Translations under genes and position numbers: made by a program
The notes under the pieces: model-generated
Told to the model about the DNA's origin: nothing
Database searches by the model: none
The model's input: only the letters and a program-made list of their open reading frames with translations
Part shown: positions 6,218-35,273 of the stretch, in pieces
Position numbering within the stretch: position 1 is the first letter of the stretch
Layout of the letters: each line of letters opens with the position of its first letter
DNA from: Spartobacteria bacterium
GTDB taxonomy: Bacteria; Verrucomicrobiota; Verrucomicrobiia; Chthoniobacterales; Chthoniobacteraceae
DNA length: 64,000 nucleotides
Direction: 5' to 3'
NCBI GenBank assembly: GCA_021324825.1
Contig: JAJPII010000029.1
Coordinates: 15,825 to 79,824 of the forward strand

Positions 6218-6234
6218 CGAGGGGTGATAAACTA

Positions 6235-6262: not shown

Positions 6263-6295
6263 GGTTGAATTCGTCACGGTTCGTCCCGCGCGGTG

Positions 6296-13329: not shown

Positions 13330-13400
13330 ATGGTGGGGCGTTGTGGAATGGCCGAGGAAGGGCTCGCTTTGGCGTTCCCGGAGTGGCAGGTTTGTTGACG

Positions 13401-13853: not shown

Positions 13854-13857
13854 TGGT

Positions 13858-13972
13858 TGTAGAGGCGCTTGTGCCAAGCGCCTTTTTTTGGGATAGGCGG
13901 CTGGCACAGCCGCCTCTACAACCGGGGATAGGCGGCTGGCACAGCCGCCTCTACAACCGGCCTCTACAATGC
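13858..13972. repeat. REPIN doublet plus a perfect 35-bp tandem duplication of the right REP unit
   Basis: tgtagaggcgcttgtgccaagcgcct, then ggataggcggctggcacagccgcctctacaaccgg twice in tandem (13891-13925 and 13926-13960), then a partial third copy cctctacaatg. Confidence 0.85.
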
Positions 13973-14482: not shown

Positions 14483-14573
14483 AGGGGGGAAGGGTAAAGA
14501 AGAGGGGGCGGGATGGGAAGGGCATTTTCCCGTGGCGCGTGGCGCGCATCTAGCTCACTTTTGTGGCTCATTA

Positions 14574-15815: not shown

Positions 15816-16846
15816 GGGTTCTTTTCGGCCCGGATTTCCGGCATCTGGTTCAGTACCAGCAACTGCTGGCGGACGCGCTGGGGGCGGGAGGGGTTGACGT
15901 CGAGTTTTTGCAGGGGTATCGGCGGCTCCTGCCGATGACCCGCGGGGTGCGGGCGGCGCGGCCGGATGTGTTCCACCTCCACTTCCCGGTGCACTACATT
16001 CGCTGCAACGGGAAGCTGGACGAGGCGAGGAAGTATCGCTTTTTCGCGGATGTCTGGCTGGCGGCGAGGGCGGCGCGTCTTGTTTATACGGTTCACGATC
16101 TTTACCCGACCAGCTACGCGCAGGATAAGGCCGGCAACGCGGGGCAGCATTATCTGCTGCGGCGGGCGGCGGGGCTGATCGTCCATTCGGAGGAGGCTCT
16201 GAAGCAAGTTCTGGAGATTGGGGGCGTTCCGGCGGAGAAATGCACGGTCATCCCGCATGGCGATCTTTCGGCGCCGATGGGGCAGCCCATCCCCCGCGCG
16301 CTGGCACGCGCGCAGGCGGGGTTCCAGGAGGGGGAACGCATCTGCCTCGCGCCGGGGATAGTGACGCCCAACAAGGGGCTGGAGGAATTGATCGCTTACT
16401 GGAAACGGGAGAAGCCGGATGCCATCCTCCTGATCGCCGGGCACGCCCACGACGGCGGCTACGGCCAGCGGCTGAACATGCTCGCCTCCGGGGTTGCGAA
16501 TGTCCGCCTGCGGCTCGGGTTCGTCTCCGACTACGATCTGAAGGTGCTCTTCTGCGCGGCGGATTGCGTGGTCATCAATTACCGGACGATCTTCACCTCG
16601 GGCGTGGCGAGTCTGGCGCGTTCCTTCGGGACGCCCCTGCTGCTGCCGGAACGGCTGAAGACGGTGCATCTGCTGGAGCCGCATCCTTCGGTGGTGCGAT
16701 TTGGCGAAGGGGACTTCGGGGTGAAGCTGGCGGAGACTCTTTCGCTCACGACGGATTACGCCGCCGCGGAGGAATGGCGGAATGCGACCGCCTGGGACAA
16801 GGTCGCCGCCAGGACGCGGGCGGTCTATGAATCCGTGACTTCGTAA
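15812..16846 (+). CDS. GT-B fold glycosyltransferase (GT1/GT4-like)
   Basis: ORF 15779..16846. The start at 15812 (MRVLFGPDF) overlaps the upstream stop (ATGA). The C-terminal half (PNKGLEELI...LLIAGH...FCAADCVVINY) is typical of retaining GT-B enzymes. Its 3' end overlaps the convergent PPTase gene by 22 nt. Confidence 0.6.
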   Translation: MRVLFGPDFRHLVQYQQLLADALGAGGVDVEFLQGYRRLLPMTRGVRAARPDVFHLHFPVHYIRCNGKLDEARKYRFFADVWLAARAARLVYTVHDLYPTSYAQDKAGNAGQHYLLRRAAGLIVHSEEALKQVLEIGGVPAEKCTVIPHGDLSAPMGQPIPRALARAQAGFQEGERICLAPGIVTPNKGLEELIAYWKREKPDAILLIAGHAHDGGYGQRLNMLASGVANVRLRLGFVSDYDLKVLFCAADCVVINYRTIFTSGVASLARSFGTPLLLPERLKTVHLLEPHPSVVRFGEGDFGVKLAETLSLTTDYAAAEEWRNATAWDKVAARTRAVYESVTS

Positions 16847-17454
16847 GAGCGAACGGCGAGCGGTTTTCCCGCGACGACCACGGCGGCGGCGTAGCGGGCT
16901 CCGAGTTCGGGTTCGAAGAGCGACCACCGGGCTTCCTCGAGCGCGGAAGCGACGTCGATTTCCTCCGGGGGAAGGGAAAAGCCTTTGCCGACAGCCTTGA
17001 GGTAGGCCTCCTTGCGCGTCCATAGCTTGAAAAAATCCTCGCCTTCGGAAAGCAGGGCGCGCTCCCGGGGCGCAAAGACATTTTCCAGGGCGGGGAAGCC
17101 GGGCCTTCGAAATTCCACGTCGGCGCCAAGTTCCATTTCCCGGGAGAACGCGAAGAGGGCGAGGCTTTCGGAATGGGACATATTGAACTTCAAGGTCCCG
17201 CCGTCCAAGGCCGGTTTGCCATAAGGCGAACGGATGAAAAGCGGCTCCGCGCCCAGCCAGGATGCGAGCAGGAACCGCAACCACCCGTGCGCGGCGATGA
17301 AGCGCGCCCGGTGACCGGGAAAGCGGAAGCGCGACGCGCGGGCGGCTTCCCCGGAGTCAAGCGTGCGCTCGAATCTCCGCAGGGCGTCTTCCTCGAGGTC
17401 GAGGCGGGCGTGGACGACGTGGACTTCGCCGTCCGCGAGTTGCGGCGGAGTCAC
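16825..17454 (-). CDS. 4'-phosphopantetheinyl transferase, Sfp type
   Basis: 209-aa ORF. Motifs FNMSHSESLALFAFS, GADVE and WTRKEAYLKAVGKG. The GTG start overlaps the upstream stop (GTGA at 17451-17454). It is the last gene of the NRPS-PKS operon. Confidence 0.8.
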   Translation of the reverse strand: MTPPQLADGEVHVVHARLDLEEDALRRFERTLDSGEAARASRFRFPGHRARFIAAHGWLRFLLASWLGAEPLFIRSPYGKPALDGGTLKFNMSHSESLALFAFSREMELGADVEFRRPGFPALENVFAPRERALLSEGEDFFKLWTRKEAYLKAVGKGFSLPPEEIDVASALEEARWSLFEPELGARYAAAVVVAGKPLAVRSYEVTDS

Positions 17455-19967
17455 GCGGAGGCGTCCAGGCAGGCTTGCAGACGCTCCGTCAGGACGGTGA
17501 GATTCGAATAAACGGTGATCGCGGTGAAATGCCCGCCCGGCACCACGTGGACGGTCAGGCGCCTTACCACCGTTTTCCAGTTGAAGGTCGGATCCTCGCA
17601 GCGGATGCCGGGGTCCGGCTCGCTTTGCCGCAGGAGAAAGACCTTCCCGTCATAACGCCGGGGGATGTAGGCGCAGACCGCTTCGCGATACGTCCGCGAA
17701 ACGTCGAACTTCTGTTCCACCGGCTCCCCGGGGGCTTCGCCCGCCGGACGCGGGGCGAACAGCCTGCCGATGCGCCGGAGAATGCGCCCGGTTTTCCTCC
17801 GGATGCGGGCGAAGGCCGTGGCGGCGTCCGATTGCACGATATCGCGCAGGGCGGCCATGTGGTGGCGGAAGGAGGCGTTCGCGAAGATGCACGCCTGGCG
17901 CCATTTCAGGAAGAGCAACTGGCGGGAGCGGTCATTCATCCGGTGCATGCCGCCCCAGAGAGCCACGGCGGTGAGAAGCGGCTTGAACTGGATGTTGATC
18001 GCATCCACCAGGACGAGGATTAGGCAGGCGACTTTCTTTCCCTGCGCCTCCAGTTGCCGCGCCATCTCGAAGGCCACCAGGCCGCCGTTGCAGTAACCGC
18101 CCAGGTAGTACGGGCCGTCCTTCTGCATCTCGAACAGGATTTTCAGCCGGGAAGCGGCCATCGCCTCTATCGTCTCGGGCGCGGGCCGTCCGTCCCAGCC
18201 GTGGGGGTCGATCTTGTAGAAAGGGCGGTCTTTCCTCATGCGGCGGGCCAGGTTTATACAGTAGAGGCCGCCGTCCAGGAAATCGCCGTGCAAAAAGAAA
18301 AACGGCGGCTTCGTCCCCTCGGCCTGCACCTTGGTCACGGCGAAGAACTCCGAAAGGTGCTCGATGGTCGCGCCGTGGGACAACGCATCGGGCGTCAATT
18401 TGCGGCCGATGATCTTCTCGACCCGCGCGCACATCGTGGCGGCCAGGGCCGGGCTGCCTCCCAATTGGAAAAAATCGTCGGTTATCCCAACGGGGCGCGC
18501 GTGGAGGAGGTCTTCCCATATCTCGACGAGACGCTCCTGCATCCAGCCTTGCGGCGGGATGCAGGGGCGGTCGCGCGGCGGGGTTCCGTCGGCCTCGCCC
18601 GGAGCAAGGCGGCGTCCCCTGCCCGTCACGAGAAGCGGCAGTTCGGAAAGGCGGGCGTGCGGCGCGGCGACGACGGCTTCCAGCAAGCCGTTGAAATGCG
18701 TGCCGATGAGCCGGATGCGCTCGGCGTCAAAGATGTCGGTATTGTAGTTGAGGGCGCCGTCGATCCCGTCGGCGCGTTCGGAGAGCGAGAGCGTCAATTC
18801 GTATTTCGCCACGGGGCTGTCGATGGAGACGGGAGAGAGGGTCAGGTTTCCCATGGGCCGGCCGGAACGCGGCGCCGCGCGCAGGGAAAAGAGCGCACGG
18901 CAGGGCGGGATGGAATCGGCTTCCTCCAGGAGCATCTCGCACGGAAGGTCCTGGTTATCGTAAGCGCCCTGGACGGTGTCGCGCACCCGGCCAAGGAAGT
19001 CGGCGAAGCGGGGATCGCCCGCAAGGCTCGTCCTGAGCAGCAGGGTGTTTTCAAAGAGCCCGATGAGACCTTCCACGCCCGGCTGCGACCGGTTCGCCAC
19101 GGGCGAGCCGACGACGATGTCCTCCTGGCCGCTGTACCGGGAGAGGAGAGAATAGAACGCCGCCAGGAGCAGGGAAAACAACGTGACCCCCTGCTCTCTT
19201 CCCAGCGCGCGCAAGTCCTCCACCAGGGCCGCGGTCAGATCGAACCGCTCCGTAGCGCCCTGGAAATCCCGCTGGACGGGACGCGGGTGATCGGAAGGCA
19301 ACTGGAGCGCGGGCGCGCCGCGCAGGCGTTCTTTCCACCAGGCGAGTTGCCTGGTTATCTCCTCGTTCTGCACCGCGGCGCGCTGCCATTCCGCGAAATC
19401 CCCGTATTGGATCGGGAGTTCCGGCAGCGGGGAAGGCAGGCCCGCGTCGAACGCCTCGTAGAGCGCGGCCAGCTCGCGTTCCAGGACTTCGCGCGAAGCC
19501 GCGTCGGTAATGATCTGGCTGCTGTTGACCAGGAGGATGTGTTCGCGCTCGTCCAGGCAGAGGAGCCGCGCCCGGAACAACGGCGCCTCCCGCAGGTCGA
19601 ACGGGGTCTGCACTTCCTCGTCAATGAGCCGCTCGGCCTCGGCGCGCCGCTTTCCGGCGTCGAGGATGCGCAGATCGACGGCGGGCAGGAGAAGGGGCTT
19701 CGGCGGGAAGACGAGTTGAACCGGCCTCCCCTCGACGGAATTGAAGGCGGTGCGGAGGATTTCATGCCGGCGCGCGATTTCGGAGATCGTCTTCTCAAGG
19801 GCCGGGACGTTCAGCGGCCCTTCGAGGCGGAAGGCTTCCGGCATGTTGAAGGGAGCCGACCAGAGGCGCTGCTGCGGGTAGGAGGCGGCGAAGACAAAAA
19901 TGTCCTCGGTGTTCGCGTCGGCCACTCCGCCCGTCCATTGATGGGACGAAAGATCGGGGCGGCTCAT
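17451..19967 (-). CDS. NRPS release protein: degenerate condensation-like domain, degenerate carrier-like domain, thioesterase with Cys nucleophile
   Basis: 838 aa.
- C-like domain, aa 20-445 (nt 18633-19910): C1 motif YPQQRLW is present, but the C3 motif reads SQIITDAAS (nt 19494-19520) instead of HHxxxDG.
- Carrier-like domain, aa 475-545 (nt 18333-18545): DDFFQLGGSPALAA, so Pro sits at the canonical Ser position.
- Alpha/beta TE, aa 553-830 (nt 17478-18311): FFFLHG, nucleophile elbow GYCNG (Cys626 = TGC at 18090-18092), GGHFT His813. Confidence 0.85.
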   Translation of the reverse strand: MSRPDLSSHQWTGGVADANTEDIFVFAASYPQQRLWSAPFNMPEAFRLEGPLNVPALEKTISEIARRHEILRTAFNSVEGRPVQLVFPPKPLLLPAVDLRILDAGKRRAEAERLIDEEVQTPFDLREAPLFRARLLCLDEREHILLVNSSQIITDAASREVLERELAALYEAFDAGLPSPLPELPIQYGDFAEWQRAAVQNEEITRQLAWWKERLRGAPALQLPSDHPRPVQRDFQGATERFDLTAALVEDLRALGREQGVTLFSLLLAAFYSLLSRYSGQEDIVVGSPVANRSQPGVEGLIGLFENTLLLRTSLAGDPRFADFLGRVRDTVQGAYDNQDLPCEMLLEEADSIPPCRALFSLRAAPRSGRPMGNLTLSPVSIDSPVAKYELTLSLSERADGIDGALNYNTDIFDAERIRLIGTHFNGLLEAVVAAPHARLSELPLLVTGRGRRLAPGEADGTPPRDRPCIPPQGWMQERLVEIWEDLLHARPVGITDDFFQLGGSPALAATMCARVEKIIGRKLTPDALSHGATIEHLSEFFAVTKVQAEGTKPPFFFLHGDFLDGGLYCINLARRMRKDRPFYKIDPHGWDGRPAPETIEAMAASRLKILFEMQKDGPYYLGGYCNGGLVAFEMARQLEAQGKKVACLILVLVDAINIQFKPLLTAVALWGGMHRMNDRSRQLLFLKWRQACIFANASFRHHMAALRDIVQSDAATAFARIRRKTGRILRRIGRLFAPRPAGEAPGEPVEQKFDVSRTYREAVCAYIPRRYDGKVFLLRQSEPDPGIRCEDPTFNWKTVVRRLTVHVVPGGHFTAITVYSNLTVLTERLQACLDASA

Positions 19968-22900
19968 AGAGTCGCCCGCGTGACGCGCCTTGCCGCGCGC
20001 GAGATTCCCACGATGGGCGGAAGCGCCTTGCGTCCGCCGGCGGTTTCCGGCTTCGCGGCAAACGGGTTCTCATAACCGAACTCGGAGGCCATGTTCCAGG
20101 TGGCGGCGCTTAGGAAGTCTTCCGCGTATTCGGCCTTCCATTGGTCGGCGACGTCGGGGCGGACTTCGTTGAACTTCAGGAAATTATGATCCCCCACTTG
20201 CGGCGAGAGCGGATGTATCCCGTCGGTCATCTTCTTCTGCTTGTCCTTGTACGGCTCGATCATCCCCGGGTGAAACGCGATTCCCAGGAACCGGCAGACG
20301 GCTTCCATCGCCGGCCGCGGGTCGCCCACGATGTCTTCAAACCGCACCCGATGCCGCCGCTGCGCCGGGATGCCCGAAAGAAACTCGCGGATGTTTTGAT
20401 GGGAGATCAGCCAGGTCAGCTCGCCCAGCCGCCGGGCGGAGAAATTCTGTTTATGCCGGTACGGAGATTCGAGGATGAACCGCCCTTTCTCATAGGAACG
20501 GATCATGCCCAGCGGGTGGCGAAGCAGGTGGATGTAGAGCGCGTCGTCGAACCACTCCTCGGCGCGCCGGAGGACGTCGAGGTCCATGGCGTAGTCGGGC
20601 GATTTGTCCACCAGAACCTTCGGGGCCACCCACTCCTGCATCTGCCGGTAGAACTCCTGCACGGAAGAGCCCGCGTTTTCCAGTTCCTCCATGATCCTGC
20701 CCGCCTCGTCCATGTCGCACCCCTTTATCTCCATGACGGCGCGCAGGACGCCCTCGAGCATGTATTTGTCGTAGCCGGTATAGACCTTCTTGCGCGTCGC
20801 GAGGTTCTGGAACCCCAGGAGCTGCAATTCCGGCGGGGCGAACAACGCCGGGTTGCCCGCGAGCATTATCCTGCACAGGGTCGAGCCGGAACGCATCGGG
20901 CTGAGAATGAAGACGGCGCGCGGATTTTTCCTCTTCGCGGGGACGGCGGCGGATTCGACCGGGCGGACGGACTGGACGATGAGGCGCAACTTCTCTTCAT
21001 CCCCTCCCCCGGCGGACTCGGGCGCTTTCGTCTCCGGCGCGGTTCCGAAAACCCGGCGGACGCTCTTCTCGTAATTCGTCTCCAACAAGCCGGAAAGCTC
21101 CGCGAGCGTCGGCGCTTCGAAAAGGACGACCAGGGCGACGTGTTCATCCAGCAAAGCCTGGAGCTTTTGGACGAACCGCAATCCAAGGAGGGAGTTGCCC
21201 CCCATCTCGAAGAAGTTTTCATGTAATCCTATGCGGTCCAGGCCGAGGTTCTCTTTCCACATCTCCGCGAGCTTCGCCTGGAGCGGGGTCAGCGCCGCTT
21301 CCGCGGTCTCCCGGAAGACGGCGGCCGCGGGCGCGGGCAGGGACCGGCGATCCACCTTGCCGTTGGCGGTCAGCGGCAGCGCCTTTAGCGAGACGAAGGC
21401 GGAGGGGATCATGTATTCGGGGAGATGATGCTTGAGGGCGCTCCTCAAAGCGGTCGAGAGGTCTTCTCCTTCGTTTTTCGGGACGACGTACGCCACGATC
21501 CGCTTGTCCCCCACCCTGTCCTCGCGGGCGAGGACGACCGAGTCCTTGACCAAGGGCTGCCGCTCGAGCGCGGCGTTGATCTCGTCCAGCTCGATCCGGA
21601 ACCCGCGGACCTTTACCTGGAAGTCGATGCGCCCCATGTAAAGGATGTTGCCGTCCGTTGTCCACTTCGCGAGATCGCCCGTGCGATAAAGCCGGCCTCC
21701 GGGGCTGAACGGATCGGGGATGAATTTCTCGTTCGTCAGTTCGGGCCTGCCCCAGTAACCGCGCGCGAGGCCCGCGCCTCCTATATATAACTCCCCCGCC
21801 ACGCCCACCGGCACGGGCTGAAGCCTGCCGTCGAGCAGATAGATGGCGGTGTTGGCTATGGGCCGCCCTATGGGCACGACTTCCGATTCCCGCCTGCAAG
21901 TCCAGTGCGTGACGTCGACAGAGGCCTCCGTCGGGCCATAAAGGTTGTGAAGCCGGGCGCGCAGGACGGAGAAAAACCGTTCCTGAAGATCATGGGAAAG
22001 CGCTTCGCCGCTGCAGATGACATCGCGCAGGGCGGCGCATTTCCCCGCGTCCCGCGCTTCGAGGAAAACGGCCAGCATGGGCGGGACGAAGTGGATGACG
22101 GTTATCCCCTCCCCCATGATCGTCGCGGCGAGGTAATCGCTGTCCTGGTGGCCGCCGGGCTTCGCCATGACCAGCCGCGCCCCCGCGAGCAAAGGCCAGA
22201 AGAACTCCCATACCGAAACGTCGAAACTGAACGGCGTCTTCTGAAGGACGCGGTCTTCCGCGCCGAGGCGGTACGCGTCCTGCATCCAGAGAAGGCGGTT
22301 GCAGATGCCGGAGTGCGTGTTCATGGCGCCCTTCGGCTTGCCGGTGGAACCCGAGGTGTAGATGACGTACGCCAGGTTCTCCGGCCTGGTTGCGGAGGTT
22401 GGCGCTTCGGTTGATTCGCGCGCGATGGCGGACCAGCCCGCGTCCAGGCAGACGACCTCCGCGGAGTGCGGGGGCAGGCTGAGGCGCTCCTGCGTCAGGA
22501 GAACGGGGATGCGCGCGTCGGCGATCATGAAGGCCAGGCGCTCCGGCGGGTAACCGGGGTCGAGCGGCACGTAAGCGCCCCCGGCCTTCAGGATGCCGAG
22601 CAGGCCGGTCACCATCTCCAGGGAGCGTTCCATGCAGACGCCGACCGGCGAATCGGGGCCGATCCCCTTCCCTTGCAGGTAACGCGCCAGCTGATTCGCC
22701 CGGCGGTCCAGCTCCCGGTACGTGAGGCTCTTCTTTTCGAAAACGACGGCCACGGCGTCCGGCGTCCGCCTCGCCTGTTCCTCGATGAGGCGGTGCAGGA
22801 GCGCGTCCTTGGGATAATCGACGCAGGTGTCGTTCCACCGGACGAGGATCTGGTTGCGCTCGACCTCGTTCAGGAGCGGGAGATCGCGCACGTCGCGCGC

Positions 22901-25900
22901 GGCGTCGGCGACGACTCCTTCGAGGATCGTCTTGAAATGGCCCAGCCAGCGCAGGACGGTTTCGGGGTCGTAAAGGTCGCTGTTGTGGTCGCACTCGATG
23001 TCGAGCGCGCCGTCCTTCTCGGCGGCGTTCAGGTAAAGCTCGGCCATCGCGGTCGTGGCGGGGCCGCGATACGGCACGTGGCGGGTCAGCAATTCGACGT
23101 GGAGGCCGTCGAGGTTCTTGCGGAACTCCCCGCTTTCGAAGTTGAAGATGGTCGAGAAAATCGGCGCGCGGGCGGGGTCGCGCGGCAGGCGCATCGCATC
23201 GAGCAGCCGCCCGAAGAAGTAGTTCTGGCGCTCGGAAGCGCCGAGCACGAGATTCTTCATGCCGGTCATGTAATCGGCGAACGGCGCCTTCCCGTCGATG
23301 CGGCTCCGTATCGGCAGGACGTTGGTCGTGTTCGCGAACAGGGACGGCCCGCCCTCGAGCGTGCGGACGTCATCCTCGAACGGAACGCCGATGACCACGT
23401 CATCCTGCCCGCTGAGGCGATGCAGCAGGACGCCGAACGCCGCGAGGAGCACGTTGAAAAGCGAACAGCGCCGCGCGGCGGCGGCATGCCTCAAAGCGCG
23501 CGTGAACTCCGCGTCGAGCGTCAGCGTCTGCCGCTGCCCGCGGAACGTCAGGAAGTTCGGGCGGGGACGGTCGGCGGGCAGTTCCAGGACGGGGACGCCG
23601 CCCTTGAATTGCGCCAGCCAGTACGCTTCCGCCTCGGCGGCGTCCTCGCGGCGCCGGGCGTCCCGCGCGATGAATTCGCTCAACTGCATCGCGGGCGGCA
23701 GCGTCTTCACGCCGGAGTAAAGCGCGCAGAGTTCCTCCAGGAAAACCCAGTAGGAAGGGCCGTTCCCCATAACGTGATGGAAGGTCAGCAGGAGCAAATG
23801 CTCCTTCTCGTTGACGTTCAAAAGAGCCGCGCGGAAAAACGGCCCTTTCAGCTTCTCGAAAAGTTCGTTCTCGATCGGGAAAAGAGCCTCGGGCTCTCCC
23901 GAAAGTTCGCGGAAATCGACTGTTCCGGCAGGAGCGATGTTCTGGGAGGAACCGTCCTCCGAAATCGTGGCGCGCAACGCTTCGTGGCGACCCGCCAGCG
24001 CCTGCAGGGCCGCGCGCAAAGCCGCGACATCCAGCGGGCCGCGAAGGCTGAGCGTAACCGATTCGTGATAGGCCCGCGCCGCCTGGTCATCCATGCCGGA
24101 AATCCATAAGCCCTGTTGCGCGGGCGTCAAAGGCAATGTGCGCGCGGCGGGGGTCTTCTCGTAGCGGCTCTTCAGTTCGCTTAGGGTTGTAAGGCTTTGC
24201 AGGACGGAACGAGTATCAATTCCGAAGTCGATGAAGCACCCCACCTCGTCCACTCCGATTCCCGCCAGGCGATCCATGACGCGCGCGCAGGAATCGGGCG
24301 TGCCGATCAGCGCCTTGCCCTCGACGTAATCCGTGAACGCAGTATCCAGGAGGTATTCGATGTCCGCGGGATCGACCTCGACCTGGCCGCCTTCGCTCTC
24401 CATTTTCTTGCGGCTGTTGTCCAGGAACGAACGGAGATATTCGCGGAGCGGCCCCCGCGCGGTCTCGCGGGCCGCCGCGAGGTCCGGGCCGACAAACGTG
24501 TGCAGGAGGATCGTCACATGGCCGGCGGCCGGGTCGTGCCCGTGCCGGACGAGGGAGTCGCGGTACAGGGCGATCTTTTCCGCGACCTCCTCCACCTTCT
24601 GGTTCATGAGGTAGCCGAGAACGCCGACGCCCATCTCGCCCGCCTTGACGAACGAGTCCGGGTGGATGCATGTGAGCCATATCGGAAGGTCCTTCCGCAT
24701 CGGCAGCGGGTGGAGCTTCACCTGCACGTCGTTGCCCGCGCCGCCCTTCATCGGGACGGCCTCCCCTCGCCAGAGCTTCCTGACCGTTTCCAGACCTTCG
24801 AAACAAAGCTCGCGCCGCCGGTCGAACGCCGCGGGAGCGAAGATGAAGTCGTTCGGATGCCAGCCCGAGGCGATGGAAAGCCCGGTGCGGCCCTTCGAGA
24901 GATTATCGACGACCGACCACTCCTCCGCGATGCGCGCGGGATGGTGCAGCGGGAAGACCACGCTGCCGCCCCGAAGCTGGATTTGCCCGGTCTCCCGCGC
25001 AAGGGCGGCGGCCAGCACGGAGGGATTCGGCGAAAACCCGCCCACCGCGTGGAAATGGCGTTCCGGCAGCCAGACGGCGGTGAACCCATGTTTGTCCGCG
25101 AATTTGGTTGCTTCAAAGAGGAGGTCGTATTTATCCGGCTGGAAGCCCGCCTCATAGTTGCCGAAGAAATAGAGGCTGAACTGCACCCCGGACTTCGCGG
25201 GTCCGGGTCTCGGAACGGGAGGAGCGACAGGAACCGGCTCCAGGCGAGGCGGAGGAGCGGGAGGGGTTTCCGATTCTTCGCCGGGAAGAAAACCTCCCGC
25301 CTTCATTTCCAGCACGCTCTCCTTGAACGCGCGGATGACGAACTCGACATCGGCCTCCGTATGCGCGGTCGAGAGGAAGCAGGGGCGGCCTTCCCAGACG
25401 TGGACGCCTTTTTCGCGCAGATGGAAGAAGAGCAGGCTCGGATACTTTATCTCCGGGCTGAAATCGAAATAGAAGAGGGAGCGGAACCAGATGATCCGCA
25501 GCGGCGCCTGCCGCTCCGCGAAGAAGGCGTTCAGCGTCCCGGCGAAACGCGCGGTTCGCGCGGCGAGTTCCTCCTGAAGGCCGGGGCCGGATTTCTTCAA
25601 ATGTTCGAGGATGGCGGACGCGGCGGCCATCGCGAGCGGATGGCGCACATAGGTGCCCGCGAAGAACGTCACGCCGACCTCGGGGAACGAGGCGTCGCCG
25701 TAATCCCACGCGCCGCCGTCCAGGGCGTCCATGTATTCCGCGCTGCCGCAGAGCGCGCCGATGGGCATGCCGCCGCCGATGATCTTCCCGTAGGTCGCCA
25801 GGTCGGCCCGGATGCCAAAGAGCGCCTGCGCCCCGCCCGGATGCGAACGGAACCCGGTGATGACCTCGTCGAAAATGAGCGCCGTTCCCGCTTCCTTCGT

Positions 25901-28900
25901 GATGCGCCGGACTTCCCTGAGAAAATCGACCGGCTGGATGTCGGGATGCCTGCTCTGCACCGGCTCGACAAGCACCGCCGCCAGTTCTCCCACGACCGAC
26001 TTCAATACCTCCAGCGAATGCGCGGCGCCCCATTCCAGGATGCAGACCTCGCTCACCGCGTGCGCCGGGATGCCGGGCGCGATCGGAACCGCGCGGTTGT
26101 CCGCGGCGGGGCGGACGAGAACCTCGTCGCAAATACCGTGGAAGGCGCCGGACATCGTGGCGATCTTCGTGCGGCCCGTGACGGTGCGGGCCAGCCGTAT
26201 CGCCGCGAGCACCGCTTCCGACCCGGTGTTGCAAAACGCGGCCCGCTCCATGCCGGTCAACTCGCACATCAGTTTGGCGACCTTCCCAGCGACGGACGAT
26301 TGCGGCCCGACCTCCACGCCGCGGTCAAGCTGCTCGCGGATGGCGTCCGTGACGAACGACGGCGAATGCCCGAGGATGTTGGTGCCGAACCCCATCGTGA
26401 CATCGACGTATTCGTTGCCGTCCACGTCCCACAGCCGCGCGCCCGACGAGCGGGTCGCCACAACCGGGTAAACCATCTCCTTCCAGAACGGCCGGAACCC
26501 CGCGACGGTGCGCGGATCGGCGAAGTGGCGGCGGTTCTCCTTGGTATAGCGCTTCGACCCCGGGGTGCGCTTCACGTAACGCGCGACGAGCGCGTCGAGA
26601 TGCGCCTGCTGGCGCGGCGTGAACCCCGCGCCCGCCGTCTTGTCGATCGGCTTGTAAGGGCCGAAGAACTTCGGTTTCTCAGGCTGGGAGGGATGCGCGG
26701 CGGGGACTTTAGGGGGAGGTTGTCCGCCGCGCATCGCCTCAATCTGTTTCGTCATCTCCTGCAACTGCCGGGCCATGCCGTCGAGCGCCGATTCCGCGGG
26801 CGCGGCGGGCGCGGGCGCCTGCTCGCGCGGCAACTGGGCGTCGAGGAAGTCCGCGATCGCGTCCAGTGAGGAGAGTTCTTCCAACAGTTGCCGGAAGGTT
26901 ATCTTGACGTTGAATTTTTTACGGAACGCCTGCGCCGCCTGCGTGAGGAAGAGCGAGTCGAATCCCAGTTCGAAAAAGCTCGCGGCGGGGTCCAGTTCGG
27001 AGCGGTCGCGGCCCGAGATATCCTTGAGGACATCCGTGAGCGTCGAGACGATCCCCTCCTTGCGGCCTGCCGTCGAGACGGCGGCTGCCGGTCCGGGCGC
27101 GCCCGGTTTTTCCACCGGCGCGGACGCATTCGGCGGCTCGACGTAATGTCGCGTCCTCTCAAAGGAATACGCGGGGAGATGAACCCGCCGCCGTTGTTCG
27201 CGCGCATGGAAACCGGCCCAATCCACCTGCGCGCCGTTCAGCCAAAGCTGGCCGAGGGCGCCCAGCATGGAAGCGGTCTCCCCGGACGCCGCGAGCGACG
27301 GGATGACAGCCTGCTCCTTCTTTTTGGCGGGATGCTGCCGGGCGAACGTCGCCAGCGACTGGCCCGGCCCCACTTCGAGAAGGACGCGCTCCGGCTCGCG
27401 GACGAGGGTTCCCATGCCGTCGAAAAAGCGGACCGTTTCGCGCAGATGACGCGCCCAATAGGCGGGGCTGGTCGCCTGCTCCGGCGTTATCCAGTCCGCG
27501 GTGAGATTCGAGATATACGGGATCGCGGGCGCGTGAAGGGGCGTCTTCCTCACCAGTTCGGTGAACGGCTCGAGGATGGGATCGAGCATGGCCGAATGGA
27601 ACGCGTGGGACGTGCACAACGGCTTGGAAGCGACGCCCGCCTCCTCCAGCTTCATCCGCAACGCCGCGAGGCGCGTTTCCGGGCCGGAAACGACGCAAAG
27701 CGAAGGGCCGTTCACGGCGGCTACCGCGACATCCTCCGCGAGCCAGGGACCGAGCTTCCCCTCTTCCAGCCGGACGGCGAGCATCGCGCCCGAGGGCAAT
27801 TCCTGCATGAGCCGCGCGCGCCGGGCAAGCAGGACGAGGCCGTCCTCGAGTGAAAAGACGCCCGCGAGGCAGGCGGCGACGTATTCGCCGACGCTGTGGC
27901 CGATCATGGCCTTGGGGCGGATGCCCCACGACATCCAGAGGGTCGCGAGCGCGTATTCCACGGTGAAAAGCGCGGGCTGCGTCACGGAGGTCTGGCCCAG
28001 CCGTTGCGCGGCTTCCGTCTCCGCGCCCTCGACAGGGAAAAGCGCCTCGCGCGGATCCGCGCCAAGGCTCTCGATGAGAATGCGGGAACAGCGGTCGATG
28101 GCTTCGCGGAAGACCGACTCGGTCCGGTAAAGCTCGCGGCCCATATTGACGTACTGGGTCCCCTGCCCCGGAAACAGGAAAACGACGGGCGGCTCGGCGG
28201 AAGGAGCCGTCTTCGTCATCCACTTCTCCGGGATCGCCGTGGAATTGGCGACAACCGCCCTGCGATGCGGAAATGCCTGCCGGCCCGTTTGCAACGTCCA
28301 CGCGGCATCCGCCAGGTTGGTTTCCGGATTGGCTTTCATGTAGCCGGTGAGATTCGCCGCGGCCCGGTCGAGCGCCGCTTCGCTCTTGGCCGAAAGGAGC
28401 AATAGCTGCGAGGAGCGCGAATGTGTCGCGGGGCCGGGATCGGGCGCTTCCTCCAGGACGACGTGGGCGTTCGTGCCCCCCACCCCGAACGAACTGACGC
28501 CCGCGCGGCGCGGCGTCGGGCCGGCCTTCCATTCGGCCAGCTTGCGGTTGACGTAGAACGGGCTGTTCGCGAAGTCGATGCGGGGATTCGGGGCCTCGAA
28601 ATGGAGGCTGGGCGGTATGAGCTTGTGGCGCAGCGAGAGCGCCATCTTTATAAGCCCGCAGACCCCGGCGGCGACTTCAAGATGGCCGACGTTCGTCTTG
28701 ACCGAGCCGATGGCGCAATGGCTCCCGCCGCGCGACCGGAACGCCTGGGTCAGCCCGGCGATCTCGATGGGGTCGCCCATCGGCGTGGCGGTGCCGTGCG
28801 CCTCGACGCAAGTGATCGACTCGGGCTGGAACCCCGCCATCTCCTGCGCCAGGGCTATCACCTCCGCCTGCCCCGAAGCGCTCGGCGCGGTGTAGCCGAC

Positions 28901-29770
28901 CTTGGCCGAACCGTCGTTGTTCAGGGCGAACCCTTTTATGACCGCGTAGATGCTGTCGCGGCCGGCGAGCGCATCCTCCAGGCGCTTCAGGACGACGACG
29001 CCCGCGCCGTCGCCGAAGACCGTTCCCGACGCCCGGGCGTCGAACGCGCGGCACTTGCCGTCGGCGGAAGCGAGGCTCCCTTCCTGGTGGAGATAGCCGC
29101 GATGCCGCGGAAACGAAATGGAAACGGCCCCCGCCAGCGCCGCGTCGCACTGGTAGTTCAGGAGGCTCTGGCACGCCTGGCTCACGACCACGAGCGAGGT
29201 CGAGCACGCCGACTGGATGGTCATGCTCGGCCCGCGCAGGTCGAGCTTGTAAGAAACCCGCGTGGAGAGGTAGTCCTTGTCGTTGCCGAGAAGATATTCG
29301 TACCCGGTGACCTGGTGGCCGCCGACGAGTTCCTCGATGAATTTCCTGTCCGCGCACAGATTCGCCAGCAGGTAAGTGTTCAGGCTCACCCCCGCATAAA
29401 CGCCGATGGAGCCATGGAAGCGCGCGGGGTCGCACCCCGCATCCTCCAGCGCCTGCCACGCCGTTTCGAGAAAGACGCGGTGCTGGGGATCGGTCAGGTC
29501 GGCCTCGCGCGGATTGTATCCGAAAAAGGCGGAGTCGAAGCACTCGGGGTCGCGGAAGAGAGAGCGCGCGCGGACGTAGCCTGGGTTGTCGAGAAGGGCC
29601 TGGCTGACGCCCGCCGCGCGCAGATCCGCTTCCGAGAAATGCGAGATGGCATCGACTCCCTCGCACAAATTCCGCCAGAACTGCCCGATGTCGTCCGCGC
29701 CGGGGAAACGGCCGGCCATTCCCACGATGGCAATGCCTTCCTGGGACTCTGCTTTTGGAACATCACTCAT
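19964..29770 (-). CDS. Hybrid PKS-NRPS megasynthase: KS-AT-ACP-aminotransferase-LLM monooxygenase-C-A-PCP-sulfotransferase
   Basis: 3268 aa, with ATGA overlaps to both neighbours. Motif-based domain map (aa / nt):
- KS 12-440 / 28451-29737: TIQSACSTS Cys189, EAHGTAT, KTNVGHLE.
- AT 528-850 / 27221-28189: GHSVGE, HAFH (malonyl type).
- ACP 905-980 / 26831-27058: LGFDSL.
- Class III PLP aminotransferase 1040-1490 / 25301-26653: NTGSEAV, YGKIIGGG.
- Luciferase-like monooxygenase 1528-1870 / 24161-25189: FSLYFFGNY, WLPERHF.
- C 1878-2300 / 22871-24139: HHVMGNG.
- A 2320-2815 / 21326-22813: YTSGSTGKPKG, FDVSVWEFF, NLYGPTEASVDV, YRTGD, VKVRGFRIEL.
- PCP 2826-2895 / 21086-21295: GGNSL.
- Sulfotransferase 2948-3215 / 20126-20929: SPMRSGSTL at nt 20876-20902. 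Confidence 0.95.
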   Translation of the reverse strand: MSDVPKAESQEGIAIVGMAGRFPGADDIGQFWRNLCEGVDAISHFSEADLRAAGVSQALLDNPGYVRARSLFRDPECFDSAFFGYNPREADLTDPQHRVFLETAWQALEDAGCDPARFHGSIGVYAGVSLNTYLLANLCADRKFIEELVGGHQVTGYEYLLGNDKDYLSTRVSYKLDLRGPSMTIQSACSTSLVVVSQACQSLLNYQCDAALAGAVSISFPRHRGYLHQEGSLASADGKCRAFDARASGTVFGDGAGVVVLKRLEDALAGRDSIYAVIKGFALNNDGSAKVGYTAPSASGQAEVIALAQEMAGFQPESITCVEAHGTATPMGDPIEIAGLTQAFRSRGGSHCAIGSVKTNVGHLEVAAGVCGLIKMALSLRHKLIPPSLHFEAPNPRIDFANSPFYVNRKLAEWKAGPTPRRAGVSSFGVGGTNAHVVLEEAPDPGPATHSRSSQLLLLSAKSEAALDRAAANLTGYMKANPETNLADAAWTLQTGRQAFPHRRAVVANSTAIPEKWMTKTAPSAEPPVVFLFPGQGTQYVNMGRELYRTESVFREAIDRCSRILIESLGADPREALFPVEGAETEAAQRLGQTSVTQPALFTVEYALATLWMSWGIRPKAMIGHSVGEYVAACLAGVFSLEDGLVLLARRARLMQELPSGAMLAVRLEEGKLGPWLAEDVAVAAVNGPSLCVVSGPETRLAALRMKLEEAGVASKPLCTSHAFHSAMLDPILEPFTELVRKTPLHAPAIPYISNLTADWITPEQATSPAYWARHLRETVRFFDGMGTLVREPERVLLEVGPGQSLATFARQHPAKKKEQAVIPSLAASGETASMLGALGQLWLNGAQVDWAGFHAREQRRRVHLPAYSFERTRHYVEPPNASAPVEKPGAPGPAAAVSTAGRKEGIVSTLTDVLKDISGRDRSELDPAASFFELGFDSLFLTQAAQAFRKKFNVKITFRQLLEELSSLDAIADFLDAQLPREQAPAPAAPAESALDGMARQLQEMTKQIEAMRGGQPPPKVPAAHPSQPEKPKFFGPYKPIDKTAGAGFTPRQQAHLDALVARYVKRTPGSKRYTKENRRHFADPRTVAGFRPFWKEMVYPVVATRSSGARLWDVDGNEYVDVTMGFGTNILGHSPSFVTDAIREQLDRGVEVGPQSSVAGKVAKLMCELTGMERAAFCNTGSEAVLAAIRLARTVTGRTKIATMSGAFHGICDEVLVRPAADNRAVPIAPGIPAHAVSEVCILEWGAAHSLEVLKSVVGELAAVLVEPVQSRHPDIQPVDFLREVRRITKEAGTALIFDEVITGFRSHPGGAQALFGIRADLATYGKIIGGGMPIGALCGSAEYMDALDGGAWDYGDASFPEVGVTFFAGTYVRHPLAMAAASAILEHLKKSGPGLQEELAARTARFAGTLNAFFAERQAPLRIIWFRSLFYFDFSPEIKYPSLLFFHLREKGVHVWEGRPCFLSTAHTEADVEFVIRAFKESVLEMKAGGFLPGEESETPPAPPPRLEPVPVAPPVPRPGPAKSGVQFSLYFFGNYEAGFQPDKYDLLFEATKFADKHGFTAVWLPERHFHAVGGFSPNPSVLAAALARETGQIQLRGGSVVFPLHHPARIAEEWSVVDNLSKGRTGLSIASGWHPNDFIFAPAAFDRRRELCFEGLETVRKLWRGEAVPMKGGAGNDVQVKLHPLPMRKDLPIWLTCIHPDSFVKAGEMGVGVLGYLMNQKVEEVAEKIALYRDSLVRHGHDPAAGHVTILLHTFVGPDLAAARETARGPLREYLRSFLDNSRKKMESEGGQVEVDPADIEYLLDTAFTDYVEGKALIGTPDSCARVMDRLAGIGVDEVGCFIDFGIDTRSVLQSLTTLSELKSRYEKTPAARTLPLTPAQQGLWISGMDDQAARAYHESVTLSLRGPLDVAALRAALQALAGRHEALRATISEDGSSQNIAPAGTVDFRELSGEPEALFPIENELFEKLKGPFFRAALLNVNEKEHLLLLTFHHVMGNGPSYWVFLEELCALYSGVKTLPPAMQLSEFIARDARRREDAAEAEAYWLAQFKGGVPVLELPADRPRPNFLTFRGQRQTLTLDAEFTRALRHAAAARRCSLFNVLLAAFGVLLHRLSGQDDVVIGVPFEDDVRTLEGGPSLFANTTNVLPIRSRIDGKAPFADYMTGMKNLVLGASERQNYFFGRLLDAMRLPRDPARAPIFSTIFNFESGEFRKNLDGLHVELLTRHVPYRGPATTAMAELYLNAAEKDGALDIECDHNSDLYDPETVLRWLGHFKTILEGVVADAARDVRDLPLLNEVERNQILVRWNDTCVDYPKDALLHRLIEEQARRTPDAVAVVFEKKSLTYRELDRRANQLARYLQGKGIGPDSPVGVCMERSLEMVTGLLGILKAGGAYVPLDPGYPPERLAFMIADARIPVLLTQERLSLPPHSAEVVCLDAGWSAIARESTEAPTSATRPENLAYVIYTSGSTGKPKGAMNTHSGICNRLLWMQDAYRLGAEDRVLQKTPFSFDVSVWEFFWPLLAGARLVMAKPGGHQDSDYLAATIMGEGITVIHFVPPMLAVFLEARDAGKCAALRDVICSGEALSHDLQERFFSVLRARLHNLYGPTEASVDVTHWTCRRESEVVPIGRPIANTAIYLLDGRLQPVPVGVAGELYIGGAGLARGYWGRPELTNEKFIPDPFSPGGRLYRTGDLAKWTTDGNILYMGRIDFQVKVRGFRIELDEINAALERQPLVKDSVVLAREDRVGDKRIVAYVVPKNEGEDLSTALRSALKHHLPEYMIPSAFVSLKALPLTANGKVDRRSLPAPAAAVFRETAEAALTPLQAKLAEMWKENLGLDRIGLHENFFEMGGNSLLGLRFVQKLQALLDEHVALVVLFEAPTLAELSGLLETNYEKSVRRVFGTAPETKAPESAGGGDEEKLRLIVQSVRPVESAAVPAKRKNPRAVFILSPMRSGSTLCRIMLAGNPALFAPPELQLLGFQNLATRKKVYTGYDKYMLEGVLRAVMEIKGCDMDEAGRIMEELENAGSSVQEFYRQMQEWVAPKVLVDKSPDYAMDLDVLRRAEEWFDDALYIHLLRHPLGMIRSYEKGRFILESPYRHKQNFSARRLGELTWLISHQNIREFLSGIPAQRRHRVRFEDIVGDPRPAMEAVCRFLGIAFHPGMIEPYKDKQKKMTDGIHPLSPQVGDHNFLKFNEVRPDVADQWKAEYAEDFLSAATWNMASEFGYENPFAAKPETAGGRKALPPIVGISRAARRVTRATL

Positions 29771-31539
29771 GCCATTGAACGAGACAGCCGTTTTCGCGCC
29801 AAAACCGCCTTTTGTTTTTGCGCGCGTTCACTGATGGCGGCGGACAACTGGGGCGCCTCCGAATCCGGCGCGAGAAAGGCGGCCAGCGCCCGGATTGTCG
29901 TGTGTTCGAAAAGCGCCGTGACGGGGAAATCCCCACCGAATGCCGCGAGCAGTTTGCGGTGGACCTCGTTGACGCGCAGGGAATCGCCGCCCACGTCGAA
30001 AAAGTTGTCGTCCCGGCCCGGCGCGGCGCCGATGACCTCCTGCCAGATGGCGGCGATCCCGCGCTCGCGTTCGGACTCGAAATGAACCGGCGCATGGGAG
30101 ACGCGCGGGACGGGCAGGGCGAGGGGGTCGATCTTCCCGCTGGGGGTGAGCGGCAGGCGTTCGAGAAAGGTAAATGTGGAAGGAATGAAATGCTCGGGCA
30201 GCGCTTCGCGGAGATGCCGGCGCAATTCCTCGGCGGACGGCGCATCGGCGCGGGGCTTTATATACGCCGCGAGCCGCCCGTCGCGAACGACGACGACCAC
30301 CTCGCCGACCGCCGGGTGATGGGCGAGGCGCGTCTCGATCTCCCCCAACTCGACCCGGACGCCGCGGATCTTGACCTGGTCGTCCGAACGCCCCAGGTAC
30401 TCGATATTTCCATCGGGGAGAAACCGCGCCAGGTCGCCCGTCTTATAAAGAAGCGAAGGCGGCGGTTCGAAGGGATTCGGGATGAACCTGGCGGCCGTCA
30501 TCTCGGGGCGGTACAGATACCCGCGGCAGAGACTCTCCCCGGCGACGTGGAGTTCGCCTTCCAGGAGATGGATGCGCGTGTTCGCGATCGGGCGCCCTAT
30601 GGAAGGAAGCGGCGGCCAGCCCGCGGGCGGGCCCTGCAAGGTGTAAGCGGTGACGACATGCGTCTCGGACGGGCCGTAATGATTATGCAGCGAACAGCCC
30701 GGGAGCTTCTCGAAAAACTCGACGATGCGGGGGGTTATGCGCAATTGCTCGCCCGCGGTGATAACGTCGCGCAAGCTCTCCGGGACGGGGCCGGCGGCCT
30801 CCGCCAGTTGCTGAAGCGCGACAAATGGCAGGAAGAGCCGCTCGATCCGCCGGCTCGCCAGCAGGCTTAACAAACGCGCGGGATCACGCCGGTCGGCGTC
30901 CGCGATCAACACGAGTTCCCCTCCCCCGCGCCAGGTGGAAAACATCTCCTGAAAGGAAACGTCGAAACTCAGCGGGGCGAACTGGAGCGTCCGCGCAGGC
31001 CCGGGCAGTACGGATTCCTGCCAGGCGAGAAGATTCAGCAGGGGCCGGTGCGGCATCGCGACCCCCTTCGGCTTCCCCGTCGAGCCGGAGGTGTAGATGA
31101 CGTACGCGAGATCCTCGGGGTCGCTGGAAACGCCGGTCGGAACGCCCGGTTGCACCGGCAGATCGGCGTCGATCAAAAGGGAGGCGCGCGAATCCTCGAT
31201 CATGAAATCCAGCCGTTCCTTCGGGTAGGCGGGGTCCAGCGGCAGATAAGCGCCGCCCGCCTTCAGAATCCCGAGCGCCGCGACCATCGCCGGAACGCCC
31301 CGCTCCAGCCGGATGCCCGCCACGCCGTCCCGTCCGAGTCCCCTGGATCGCAAATAAGCGGCGAGACTGTCCGCCCTGGCGTTCAATTCACCGTAAGTCA
31401 GCCGTTCGTCTCCAAAGGAGACGGCGATAGAGTCCGGCGTCTTCGCGGCTTGTTCTTCAAACAGGCCGTGAACACTTTTTTTGCTGGCTAAACTCAAGTA
31501 TTCCTCCCCTCCCACGTTCGGCAGCAATAACCCTGCCAC
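29767..31539 (-). CDS. Stand-alone NRPS loading didomain (adenylation plus PCP)
   Basis: 590 aa with a GTG start at 31539. A-domain cores LTYGELN, YTSGSTGKPKG, FDVSFQEMF, TAGEQL, NHYGPSETHV, YKTGD, VKIRGVRVELGEIE. PCP motif FFDVGGDSL. The stop overlaps the ATG of the megasynthase (ATGA at 29767-29770). Substrate not assignable by eye. Confidence 0.9.
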   Translation of the reverse strand: MAGLLLPNVGGEEYLSLASKKSVHGLFEEQAAKTPDSIAVSFGDERLTYGELNARADSLAAYLRSRGLGRDGVAGIRLERGVPAMVAALGILKAGGAYLPLDPAYPKERLDFMIEDSRASLLIDADLPVQPGVPTGVSSDPEDLAYVIYTSGSTGKPKGVAMPHRPLLNLLAWQESVLPGPARTLQFAPLSFDVSFQEMFSTWRGGGELVLIADADRRDPARLLSLLASRRIERLFLPFVALQQLAEAAGPVPESLRDVITAGEQLRITPRIVEFFEKLPGCSLHNHYGPSETHVVTAYTLQGPPAGWPPLPSIGRPIANTRIHLLEGELHVAGESLCRGYLYRPEMTAARFIPNPFEPPPSLLYKTGDLARFLPDGNIEYLGRSDDQVKIRGVRVELGEIETRLAHHPAVGEVVVVVRDGRLAAYIKPRADAPSAEELRRHLREALPEHFIPSTFTFLERLPLTPSGKIDPLALPVPRVSHAPVHFESERERGIAAIWQEVIGAAPGRDDNFFDVGGDSLRVNEVHRKLLAAFGGDFPVTALFEHTTIRALAAFLAPDSEAPQLSAAISERAQKQKAVLARKRLSRSMA

Positions 31540-32631: not shown

Positions 32632-32645
32632 GAAGAAGAAATTTA

Positions 32646-32696
32646 ACCACGGATAACACGGATAGCACGGATGAAGGGCTCGTTCTTATCCGTGGT
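32646..32696 (-). terminator. Intrinsic terminator of fic with a triplicated 9-mer arm
   Basis: On the minus-strand RNA, ACCACGGAUAA...UUAUCCGUGGU is followed by UAAAUUUCUUCUUC. The plus strand shows cacggataa cacggatag cacggatga in tandem (32648-32674) facing the inverted ttatccgtgg (32687-32696). Confidence 0.55.
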
Positions 32697-32706
32697 CTCC
32701 TAACTC

Positions 32707-35259: not shown

Positions 35260-35273
35260 GAAGGGCGCAGTCT

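Follow-up and report, generated by a model that had tools for sequence, protein, structure and literature searches.

We analyzed a 64,000-nucleotide stretch of DNA from a Spartobacteria bacterium of the family Chthoniobacteraceae (assembly GCA_021324825.1, contig JAJPII010000029.1, positions 15,825 to 79,824 of the forward strand; hereafter the window, in which all coordinates below are counted). It carries a minus-strand operon of four genes (16825-31539) for a hybrid assembly line of nonribosomal peptide synthetase (NRPS) and polyketide synthase (PKS) modules, one of whose domains is a sulfotransferase (ST).

A four-gene NRPS-PKS operon in Chthoniobacterales

According to the list of open reading frames (ORFs), the operon comprises genes for an adenylation-carrier (A-T) protein (29767-31539, 590 aa), a megasynthase that runs from a ketosynthase (KS) to the ST (19964-29770, 3268 aa), a protein made of degenerate condensation and carrier domains followed by a thioesterase (C*-T*-TE; 17451-19967, 838 aa) and a phosphopantetheinyl transferase (PPTase; 16825-17454, 209 aa). 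Neighboring genes share 4-nt start/stop overlaps, read on the minus strand as ATGA (29770-29767), ATGA (19967-19964) and GTGA (17454-17451), and zero frameshifts or stops are found across the 14.7 kb; the lengths of the ORFs, together with the E-values of their domains, exclude chance. For the A-T gene, a TTG near 31498, with GGAGGGGAGG (GGAGG-rich) ahead of it, is a possible start in place of the GTG at 31539.

Profile hidden Markov model (HMM) searches with Pfam and NCBIfam upheld the domain order A-T / KS-AT-ACP-AMT-LLM-C-A-T-ST / C*-T*-TE(Cys) / PPTase, with every domain on the minus strand. The first protein holds the adenylation domain A1 (30133-31398; AMP-binding, 8e-69; also found by NCBIfam), with the Pro-type code DVQFIAHV(V), and the carrier T1 (29872-30057; PP-binding; GGDSL). 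The megasynthase opens with the KS (28595-29740; ketoacyl-synt, 2e-70), whose Cys-His-His set is intact in SACSTS, EAHGTATP and NVGHLE. An acyltransferase (AT; 27293-28183; Acyl_transf_1, 3e-51) follows, with GHSVGE and HAFHS motifs, the HAFH of which we take to mark a malonyl-type enzyme. The acyl carrier protein (ACP; 26843-27043; GFDSL) comes next and accounts, with T2 below, for the two PP-binding matches of this protein. There follow a class III, glutamate-1-semialdehyde (GSA)-aminomutase-like aminotransferase (AMT; 25304-26488; Aminotran_3, 5e-49, and NCBIfam), with its pyridoxal 5'-phosphate (PLP) lysine in TYGKIIGGG, and a flavin mononucleotide-dependent luciferase-like monooxygenase (LLM; 24170-25180; Bac_luciferase, 8e-45). 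A working condensation domain (C; 22844-24142; Condensation, 1e-71; HHVMGNG), the adenylation domain A2 (21356-22783; AMP-binding, 5e-98), with the Ser-type code DVW(H)ISLVD, the carrier T2 (21092-21295; GGNSL) and the ST (20057-20962; Sulfotransfer_3, 4e-25) complete the protein. The ST shows the 3'-phosphoadenosine 5'-phosphosulfate (PAPS) loop SPMRSGSTL and a PPEL motif, and a short basic C-terminal tail leads from it to the stop codon at 19964-19966, within the ATGA overlap. The last gene encodes a Sfp/HetI-type PPTase (ACPS, 8e-12, and NCBIfam). Read from the translations, the catalytic motifs of KS, AT, ACP, AMT, T1, T2 and ST are all intact. The operon proteins gave no Pfam match to a ketoreductase (KR), dehydratase (DH) or enoylreductase (ER), and their linkers are too short to hold one.

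Much of the original prediction for this operon is thus borne out: the four minus-strand genes with overlapping starts and stops, by the ORF list and the letters of the overlaps; every domain call, including the degenerate C*/T* pair and the Cys thioesterase, by Pfam, NCBIfam and motifs; and the intact KS, malonyl-type AT and missing reductive domains, by motifs and Pfam. It had named as a possible refutation HMM searches in which the AMT, LLM or ST regions prove to be something else; the regions do match those domains. Its view of the second A domain as Ser-like agrees with the A2 specificity code, and, as it stated, no MbtH, transporter or regulator gene lies inside the operon. It overlooked that the loader is Pro-type, that the LLM likely hydroxylates the alpha-carbon and that C*-T* is a decayed third module.

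Relatives were gathered with the ST domain and with the C*-T*-TE protein, for which two close homologues stand at 69-70% identity. One of these two, L001, lies on a 4.26-Mb contig and is syntenic with the window: A-T and megasynthase form a single protein there (4006 aa), and genes for the same PPTase, GT4 and response regulator come after it. The ten best relatives of the ST come from metagenome-assembled genomes (MAGs) labeled Chthoniobacterales, Chthoniobacteraceae or Verrucomicrobiae, with one labeled 'uncultured bacterium', and a tblastn domain map gives all ten the same line of A-T, KS, (AT), ACP, AMT, LLM, C, A, T and ST. Judged by these matches, the operon is one of a family spread over MAGs of Chthoniobacterales and other Verrucomicrobiota, and the Verrucomicrobiota-like origin first proposed for this DNA is supported for the whole line, the closest relatives of which come from these same groups. 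Five members (L003, L013, L014, L017 and L018) have no AT between KS and ACP, so that the family has both cis-AT and AT-less versions.

An amino acid-primed aminotransferase-monooxygenase module

A1 carries the code DVQFIAHV in every clade member that shows a code. Val236 and Gln239 form a proline signature of A domains (PMC12283262), and A1 is predicted from its code to be a Pro-type loader. As the PKS module has no KR, it should deliver a beta-keto thioester. The AMT that follows also matches NCBIfam models of GSA-aminomutase-like class III aminotransferases, and its TYGK motif is conserved in the clade; the LLM matches TIGR04020, the natural-product LLM domain, over its full length with 466 bits against a cut-off of 244.

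This arrangement has precedents. PuwE of the puwainaphycin pathway has the order KS-AT-ACP-AMT-monooxygenase-C-A-T and has been assigned to a 3-amino-2-hydroxy acyl unit (PMC4219810), and RmyA of ralsolamycin carries the same AMT-LLM pairing (PMC4989320). The megasynthase of the window likewise has KS-AT-ACP-aminotransferase-monooxygenase-C-A-T on one polypeptide without reductive domains, and its class III AMT, with the PLP lysine, stands directly before a natural-product LLM; by domain content, this is a module of the PuwE/RmyA type. More than 100 megasynthase clusters, from a library of 1.84 billion representatives, align across both AMT and LLM. The original prediction had held that the domain order maps to no characterized pathway, which does not stand: the AMT-LLM part is of the PuwE/RmyA type, and the T-ST pair is known from OciA and DysB (see below). 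Compared by described domain order, the window line and PuwE/RmyA share a non-reducing PKS module, a class III AMT, a flavin- or luciferase-like monooxygenase and one NRPS module in a single protein. Whereas in the known members a fatty acyl-AMP ligase (FAAL) supplies a fatty acid as primer and the products are lipopeptides, the window line has no fatty-acyl starter delivered through FAAL and ACP; it is primed by an NRPS A-T protein with the Pro-type code, adds two building blocks after the starter and ends in an ST. What is new about the AMT-LLM block here is this amino acid starter from an A-T protein in place of a FAAL fatty acid.

The A2 code of the window resembles the serine codes DVWH[LM]SLVDK (PMC12283262). 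Across the clade, A2 is Ser-type in eight loci (one of them partial), Gln-like in L005 and L014, DVPF[TN]SLVE in L011 and L012 and Val/Ile-like in L018. The working C domain in front of A2 reads HHxxxNG, with Asn for Asp, in nearly the whole Verrucomicrobial clade (window, L001 and L010-L019, with NHxxxNG in L013); it would accept an amino-hydroxy acyl donor.

A CurM-family sulfotransferase behind a Ser-type module

The ST matches the ST domains of CurM (4gbm, 4e-63) and Ols (4gox, 1e-52), with no other match in the PDB at E <= 0.01, and retains every column that is invariant in 17 NRPS-linked relatives, including the PAPS loop and the Glu of the PPE motif. The position of CurM His62 is Gln in the window ST and varies across the family. 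Sharing homology, PAPS loop and catalytic Glu with CurM and Ols, the ST can be placed in their family. This family includes the sulfate-retaining FkbH-T-ST modules of cyanopeptolin and dysinosin, the NRPS-embedded ST domains of which (in OciA and DysB) keep the sulfate in the product (PMC2533009, PMC6520454). Nostoc loci of the OciA/DysB type encode the same ST family at 45-50% identity; one of them, L056, has an FkbM methyltransferase and a loader before T-ST-C-A-T, with no Pfam FkbH match at that locus.

Each precedent fits the window in part. As in CurM and Ols, a homologous ST comes after a carrier domain where a megasynthase ends, but here the carrier is the T domain of an NRPS module and receives its residue from a Ser-type A domain, and without a KR there is no KR-made beta-hydroxyacyl substrate, so that only the Ser side chain could give a beta-hydroxyl. 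Nor is the ST fused to a CurM-type TE: a stop codon follows it, and the TE, which uses Cys and does not resemble that of CurM, sits on the next protein behind dead C and T domains. With OciA and DysB the window shares a T-ST pair inside an NRPS, with the T directly before the ST and a C domain after it, and in those products the sulfate is retained. They differ in that their lines open with an FkbH-like domain that loads glyceric acid, whereas the window ST stands at the end of the line, behind an adenylation domain, and the window has no Pfam match to such a glycerate loader with its FkbM methyltransferase. The original proposal that T-ST follows CurM/olefin-synthase logic therefore stands as regards homology and fails to account for the OciA and DysB domains, which leave the sulfate in place; the accompanying idea of sulfate chemistry at release survives as one option, against which stand a TE unlike that of CurM and relatives in which the ST precedes a further working module. 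Since it does so, the ST is not inherently a release device.

How NRPS lines use such domains was surveyed by scanning species-representative genomes (GTDB) with an ST alignment, a set that does not include the window's genome or L001. The scan returned 568 ST relatives. In tblastn domain maps, in-line C-A-T-ST-C-A-T is widespread in Acidobacteriota, Chloroflexota and Verrucomicrobiota, two ST modules occur in some lines, and T-ST-TE closes about ten. Loci L020-L087 (for example L039, L045, L065, L074 and L078) show in-line CurM-family ST domains in MAGs of Acidobacteriota, Chloroflexota and other groups. Where an A domain directly precedes T-ST, its code is Ser/Thr/Tyr-type in 29 of 51 cases, whereas this holds for 11 of 102 other A domains of the same loci (78 loci, Fisher p=2.8e-9). 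The enrichment persists without the Verrucomicrobial clade (24/43 against 8/90, p=1.1e-8), with the qualification that the loci are phylogenetically related, so that these p-values overstate their independence. In a neighbor-joining tree, ST subclades track the specificity of the upstream A domain. Together, the enrichment and the tree pattern point to side-chain O-sulfonation of the carrier-tethered residue. Because a sulfate on Tyr cannot be eliminated, Tyr-type modules should retain it, and the sulfate is thus kept in both NRPS contexts whose fate can be known, Tyr and glycerate. Our literature search, which most subscription papers lay outside, found no characterized A(Ser/Thr/Tyr)-T-ST module, and nothing relevant turned up on NRPS serine O-sulfate, NRPS ST domains or Chthoniobacter clusters.

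A sulfated seryl group need not be the end of the matter. On T2 it would present a CurM-like beta-hydroxy thioester, and the sulfate could serve as a leaving group, giving dehydroalanine by beta-elimination, a terminal N-vinyl amide after TE hydrolysis and decarboxylation, or a ring closed by an internal nucleophile. We consider this outcome rather unlikely. It would suit an ST that is nearest to those of CurM and Ols and is the last catalytic domain before the TE, as well as the CurM order of fused T-ST-TE in L017, L018 and about ten acidobacterial lines; of the 29 hydroxy-amino-acid modules that bear an ST, 22 are of the Ser or Thr type, and a 2023 review of dehydroamino acids lists no NRPS sulfate route, so that such a route would have gone unnoticed. 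However, Tyr- and glycerate-type modules with the same ST family must retain the sulfate; Ser-, Thr- and Tyr-ST modules occur together in single lines (L039, L045, L065 and L078), which suggests one common role for the ST; relatives with Gln- or Val-type A2 retain the domain; and the TEs behind NRPS ST domains, that of the window included, are nearest to AB3403, NocB, Pks13 and NRPS TEs, not to CurM.

The variation of A2 also bears on another acceptor, the C2 hydroxyl that the LLM may install. There, a sulfate ester could mask the warhead, or be displaced by the C3 amine to give an aziridine or by the pyrrolidine nitrogen. This is unlikely in our judgment, although it fits the clade well: Pro-type A1, AMT, LLM and ST are found in all members, whereas A2 is Ser-, Gln- or Val-like or of another type, and the Verrucomicrobial STs form a branch of their own apart from the Ser-, Thr- and Tyr-associated branches. 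Enzymes are known to form aziridines in this way on carrier-bound intermediates, by O-sulfonation and then attack of a neighboring amine, as reportedly described by Kurosawa et al. in 2022 (reference 89 of PMC9570651). On the other side, outside the clade the ST goes with the side chain of the neighboring residue, A2 is Ser-type in the window and most clade members, no homologue of a dedicated ring-closing enzyme lies in or adjoining the operon, and the LLM would truly have to make the C2 hydroxyl. A specific form of this idea, in which the ST activates the C2 hydroxyl and the C3 amine displaces the sulfate on T2 to give an aziridine-2-carbonyl or related strained N-heterocycle, is doubtful; if true, AMT, LLM and ST would make a self-contained in-line aziridine cassette, kept across a Verrucomicrobial family of biosynthetic gene clusters with a variable next residue.

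The end of the line, its surroundings and a candidate product

The third protein begins with C* (18627-19850; Condensation, 4e-84), a condensation fold in which SSQIITDA replaces HHxxxDG, continues with T* (18345-18536; PP-binding, 4e-07), a carrier fold with GGSP for GG(H/D)S, and ends in a type I TE (17454-18323; Thioesterase, 8e-21). C* lacks both His of its motif, the second being Pro in L001, Asn in P0002 and Gln in L005; the carrier Ser of T* is Pro in the window, L001 and P0002, and intact motifs are found in the other relatives. The protein also has no A domain and so departs in three ways from a canonical C-A-T-TE module, which P0004, L013 and L014 have in full. Because P0004 (63% identity), from an unrelated NRPS without an ST, is such a full module, the third protein can be traced to a termination module whose A domain was lost.

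Could these dead domains mark a decaying, non-productive cluster? A C* without both His, a T* without its carrier Ser and the lost A domain of the third module would be in keeping with pathway loss, which we nevertheless regard as very improbable. All remaining catalytic motifs are intact and no frameshift or stop interrupts the 14.7 kb, the same arrangement is kept in a relative at 67-88% domain identity, and L017 is a viable line that ends in T-ST-TE without C-T. Between the window and L001, C* and T* are 68% and 67% identical, against 68% for the working C and 73% for T2; conservation equal to that of working domains argues for a retained structural or scaffold role. Glycopeptide NRPSs offer a parallel in the X domain, which is condensation-like, lacks the catalytic His and acts as a scaffold in the termination region. 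C* is similarly a His-less condensation fold kept in a termination region, apparently as a scaffold, but no trans-acting partner is evident in the window, and its likely role would be to dock the TE to the T2-ST terminus.

Line ends vary across the clade. The window, L001 and P0002 have the decayed C*-T*-TE; L003, L013 and L014 end in an intact C-A-T-TE; L005 and L011 end in C-T-TE; and in L017 and L018 the TE is fused directly to the ST. In L010, L015 and L016, the terminal protein consists of a C domain, a stretch of ~280 aa without a domain match and T-TE. Downstream of this protein, L010 (13169-21068) has a tryptophan-halogenase-like gene and a stand-alone 455-aa adenylating enzyme, which suggests that the last carrier is loaded in trans. 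L004 (4291-9481) encodes a stand-alone 565-aa ST that carries part of a second ST-like segment, and next a C-x-T-TE(Cys) protein; this ST adjoins BamA and OmpH genes, with no megasynthase in view. In L006/L007 (3440-14149), a different NRPS (A-T, P450, C-A-T, C-A-T-TE, with GGYCNGG) terminates in the nearest intact relative of C*-T*-TE; the middle A domain of this NRPS has the same Pro-type code as A1 of the window.

The TE has a Cys nucleophile in GGYCNGG, an Asp after strand beta6 and a His in PGGHF. Its AlphaFold model (pLDDT 92) has the usual core of a type I TE under a long lid of helices and places the conserved Asp (residue 655) three residues after beta6, the conventional position, unlike in ObiF and SulM. 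In fold the model comes nearest to AB3403, NocB, Pks13 and other TEs (TM ~0.55-0.59), and AB3403, which also has Cys instead of the usual Ser, is the best match by both sequence and fold. The TEs of SulM, ObiF and CurM are absent from the best 50 fold matches and from the matches of the TE sequence search. We rejected a CurM-type TE, as neither the window TE nor the ST-fused TEs of L017 and L029 match that of CurM. The Cys is kept in every Verrucomicrobial member, the ST-TE fusions included, whereas acidobacterial ST-TE fusions use Ser, and the GG[FY]CNGG clade of TEs is found also on ordinary C-A-T-TE modules in clusters without an ST.

These features allowed us to weigh a sulfazecin-like monobactam line, in which the ST would N-sulfonate an amine and the Cys TE would close a beta-lactam. 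A TE of the SulM type has a Gln-Cys-Asn motif and a catalytic Asp in the loop after beta7, and acts behind a last A domain specific for 2,3-diaminopropionate (Dap) (PMC11298585). The window matches the Cys-then-Asn order and has a sulfotransferase in the cluster and a short product, but its motif is Tyr-Cys-Asn, in the model its family-conserved Asp appears to follow beta6 and not beta7, and it has no Dap module: the last A domain is Ser-type, and the scan of ORFs across the window turned up no SulG/SulH-like Dap genes. Moreover, the beta-amine lies in the penultimate unit, the carbonyl of which is already amide-bound, and both the lists of sequence and fold matches, in which SulM, ObiF and CurM are missing, and the spread of the TE clade to ST-free clusters speak against such a line. 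Given the A2 code, the lack of Dap genes among the scanned ORFs, the apparent position of the Asp and the dissimilar TE, we rejected the monobactam line as extremely improbable.

The operon stands out from its flanks by GC content (63-67% against 57-61%). On its 3' side lie a convergent GT4 glycosyltransferase gene and then a response-regulator/SpoIIE phosphatase gene; just beyond the operon, at 12001-16000, GC skew is +0.22 to +0.25, compared with roughly -0.05 to +0.11 elsewhere. On its 5' side, a gene for an MscS-type channel lies 15 nt from the annotated A-T start, followed by a Fic/DOC gene (31555-33750). We considered the MscS gene as a cluster exporter and rejected it, because L003, the sole relative showing that flank, has no MscS gene upstream. 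The ORFs scanned across the window include no genes for PAPS synthesis, Dap synthesis, MbtH or a cluster transporter, and a scan of 16-34 kb for promoters and terminators gave no signal exceeding shuffled expectation. Farther away, a region with large PATR-repeat surface proteins (1698-13853) holds two giant minus-strand ORFs, one of 1450 aa without a Pfam match and one of 2144 aa with 11 PATR autotransporter repeats, and an IS200-like Y1 transposase ORF at 13236-13853. At 34594-38408, minus-strand ORFs for an M50 peptidase (643 aa) and an SNF2 helicase (1044 aa) overlap by ~1.25 kb, so one of the listed start codons is probably too far upstream. A nitrate-assimilation and molybdenum-cofactor block occupies 38804-58681, with genes for a LysR regulator, an NMT1-like binding protein, an MFS transporter, a molybdate-type ABC transporter, a nitrite/sulfite reductase, a flavodoxin-type reductase, an Fe-S/DmsC-like protein, a molybdopterin oxidoreductase, a PP2C-kinase fusion, MoaA, MoeA and MobA.

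Domain identities, motif states, homologies and the comparative pattern are shown by the analysis; from them the following pathway can be proposed, in which substrates, hydroxylation site, sulfate acceptor, sulfate fate and mode of release are all inferred. The PPTase would prime T1, ACP and T2, T* not being primable. A1-T1 would load a proline-type amino acid, KS-AT-ACP would add one malonate unit to give a beta-keto thioester, and the aminotransferase would turn the ketone into a beta-amine. Following the logic of PuwE, the LLM would then hydroxylate the alpha-carbon to yield a 3-amino-2-hydroxy-3-(pyrrolidin-2-yl)propanoyl unit, which C-A2-T2 would couple to serine. With PAPS, the ST would O-sulfonate a hydroxyl of the T2-bound pseudodipeptide, for which we favor the Ser side chain over the C2 hydroxyl on the strength of the pattern seen across NRPS lines and of a Ser-type A2. 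C* and T*, both dead, would only position the Cys TE at the end of the line, and this enzyme would free the chain with the sulfate ester still in the product; the precedents of Tyr and glycerate and a TE unlike that of CurM favor such retention. The product would be a small sulfated, bestatin-like alpha-hydroxy-beta-amino acyl dipeptide, a reading to which we assign a probability of roughly 45%.

Several points weigh against it. To our knowledge, the only biochemically characterized members of the ST family are those of CurM and Ols, and both expel the sulfate as a leaving group. The window ST occupies the end of the line, and in two relatives the order is T-ST-TE, as in CurM. Cys-nucleophile TEs have, in ObiF and SulM, been linked to unusual ring-forming release. 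Conservation of the ST across a clade in which A2 varies favors an acceptor on the conserved PKS unit (C2 hydroxyl or amine) over Ser, and the relatedness of the surveyed loci tempers the Ser/Thr/Tyr enrichment. Finally, alpha-hydroxylation by the LLM is likely by analogy with product structures rather than from enzymology.

Each part of the line belongs to a known kind (PuwE/RmyA, CurM/Ols/OciA, Cys-type TEs), and we found no described pathway that joins these parts in the literature searched. Orphan clusters with one odd domain are common in soil metagenomes, and this one is real and tractable and may be a source of new chemistry. Without its sulfate, the alpha-hydroxy-beta-amino acyl motif is the zinc-binding pharmacophore of bestatin-type aminopeptidase inhibitors; if our proposal is true, the product would be a sulfated form of that motif. 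Very few natural products have been characterized from Verrucomicrobiota, and the operon is small (14.7 kb, four genes, with its own PPTase) and expressible as one piece. Resolving whether in-line A-T-ST modules make sulfated peptides or drive dehydration and cyclization through sulfate would annotate a whole class of orphan clusters, for which the line described here is a convenient test case.

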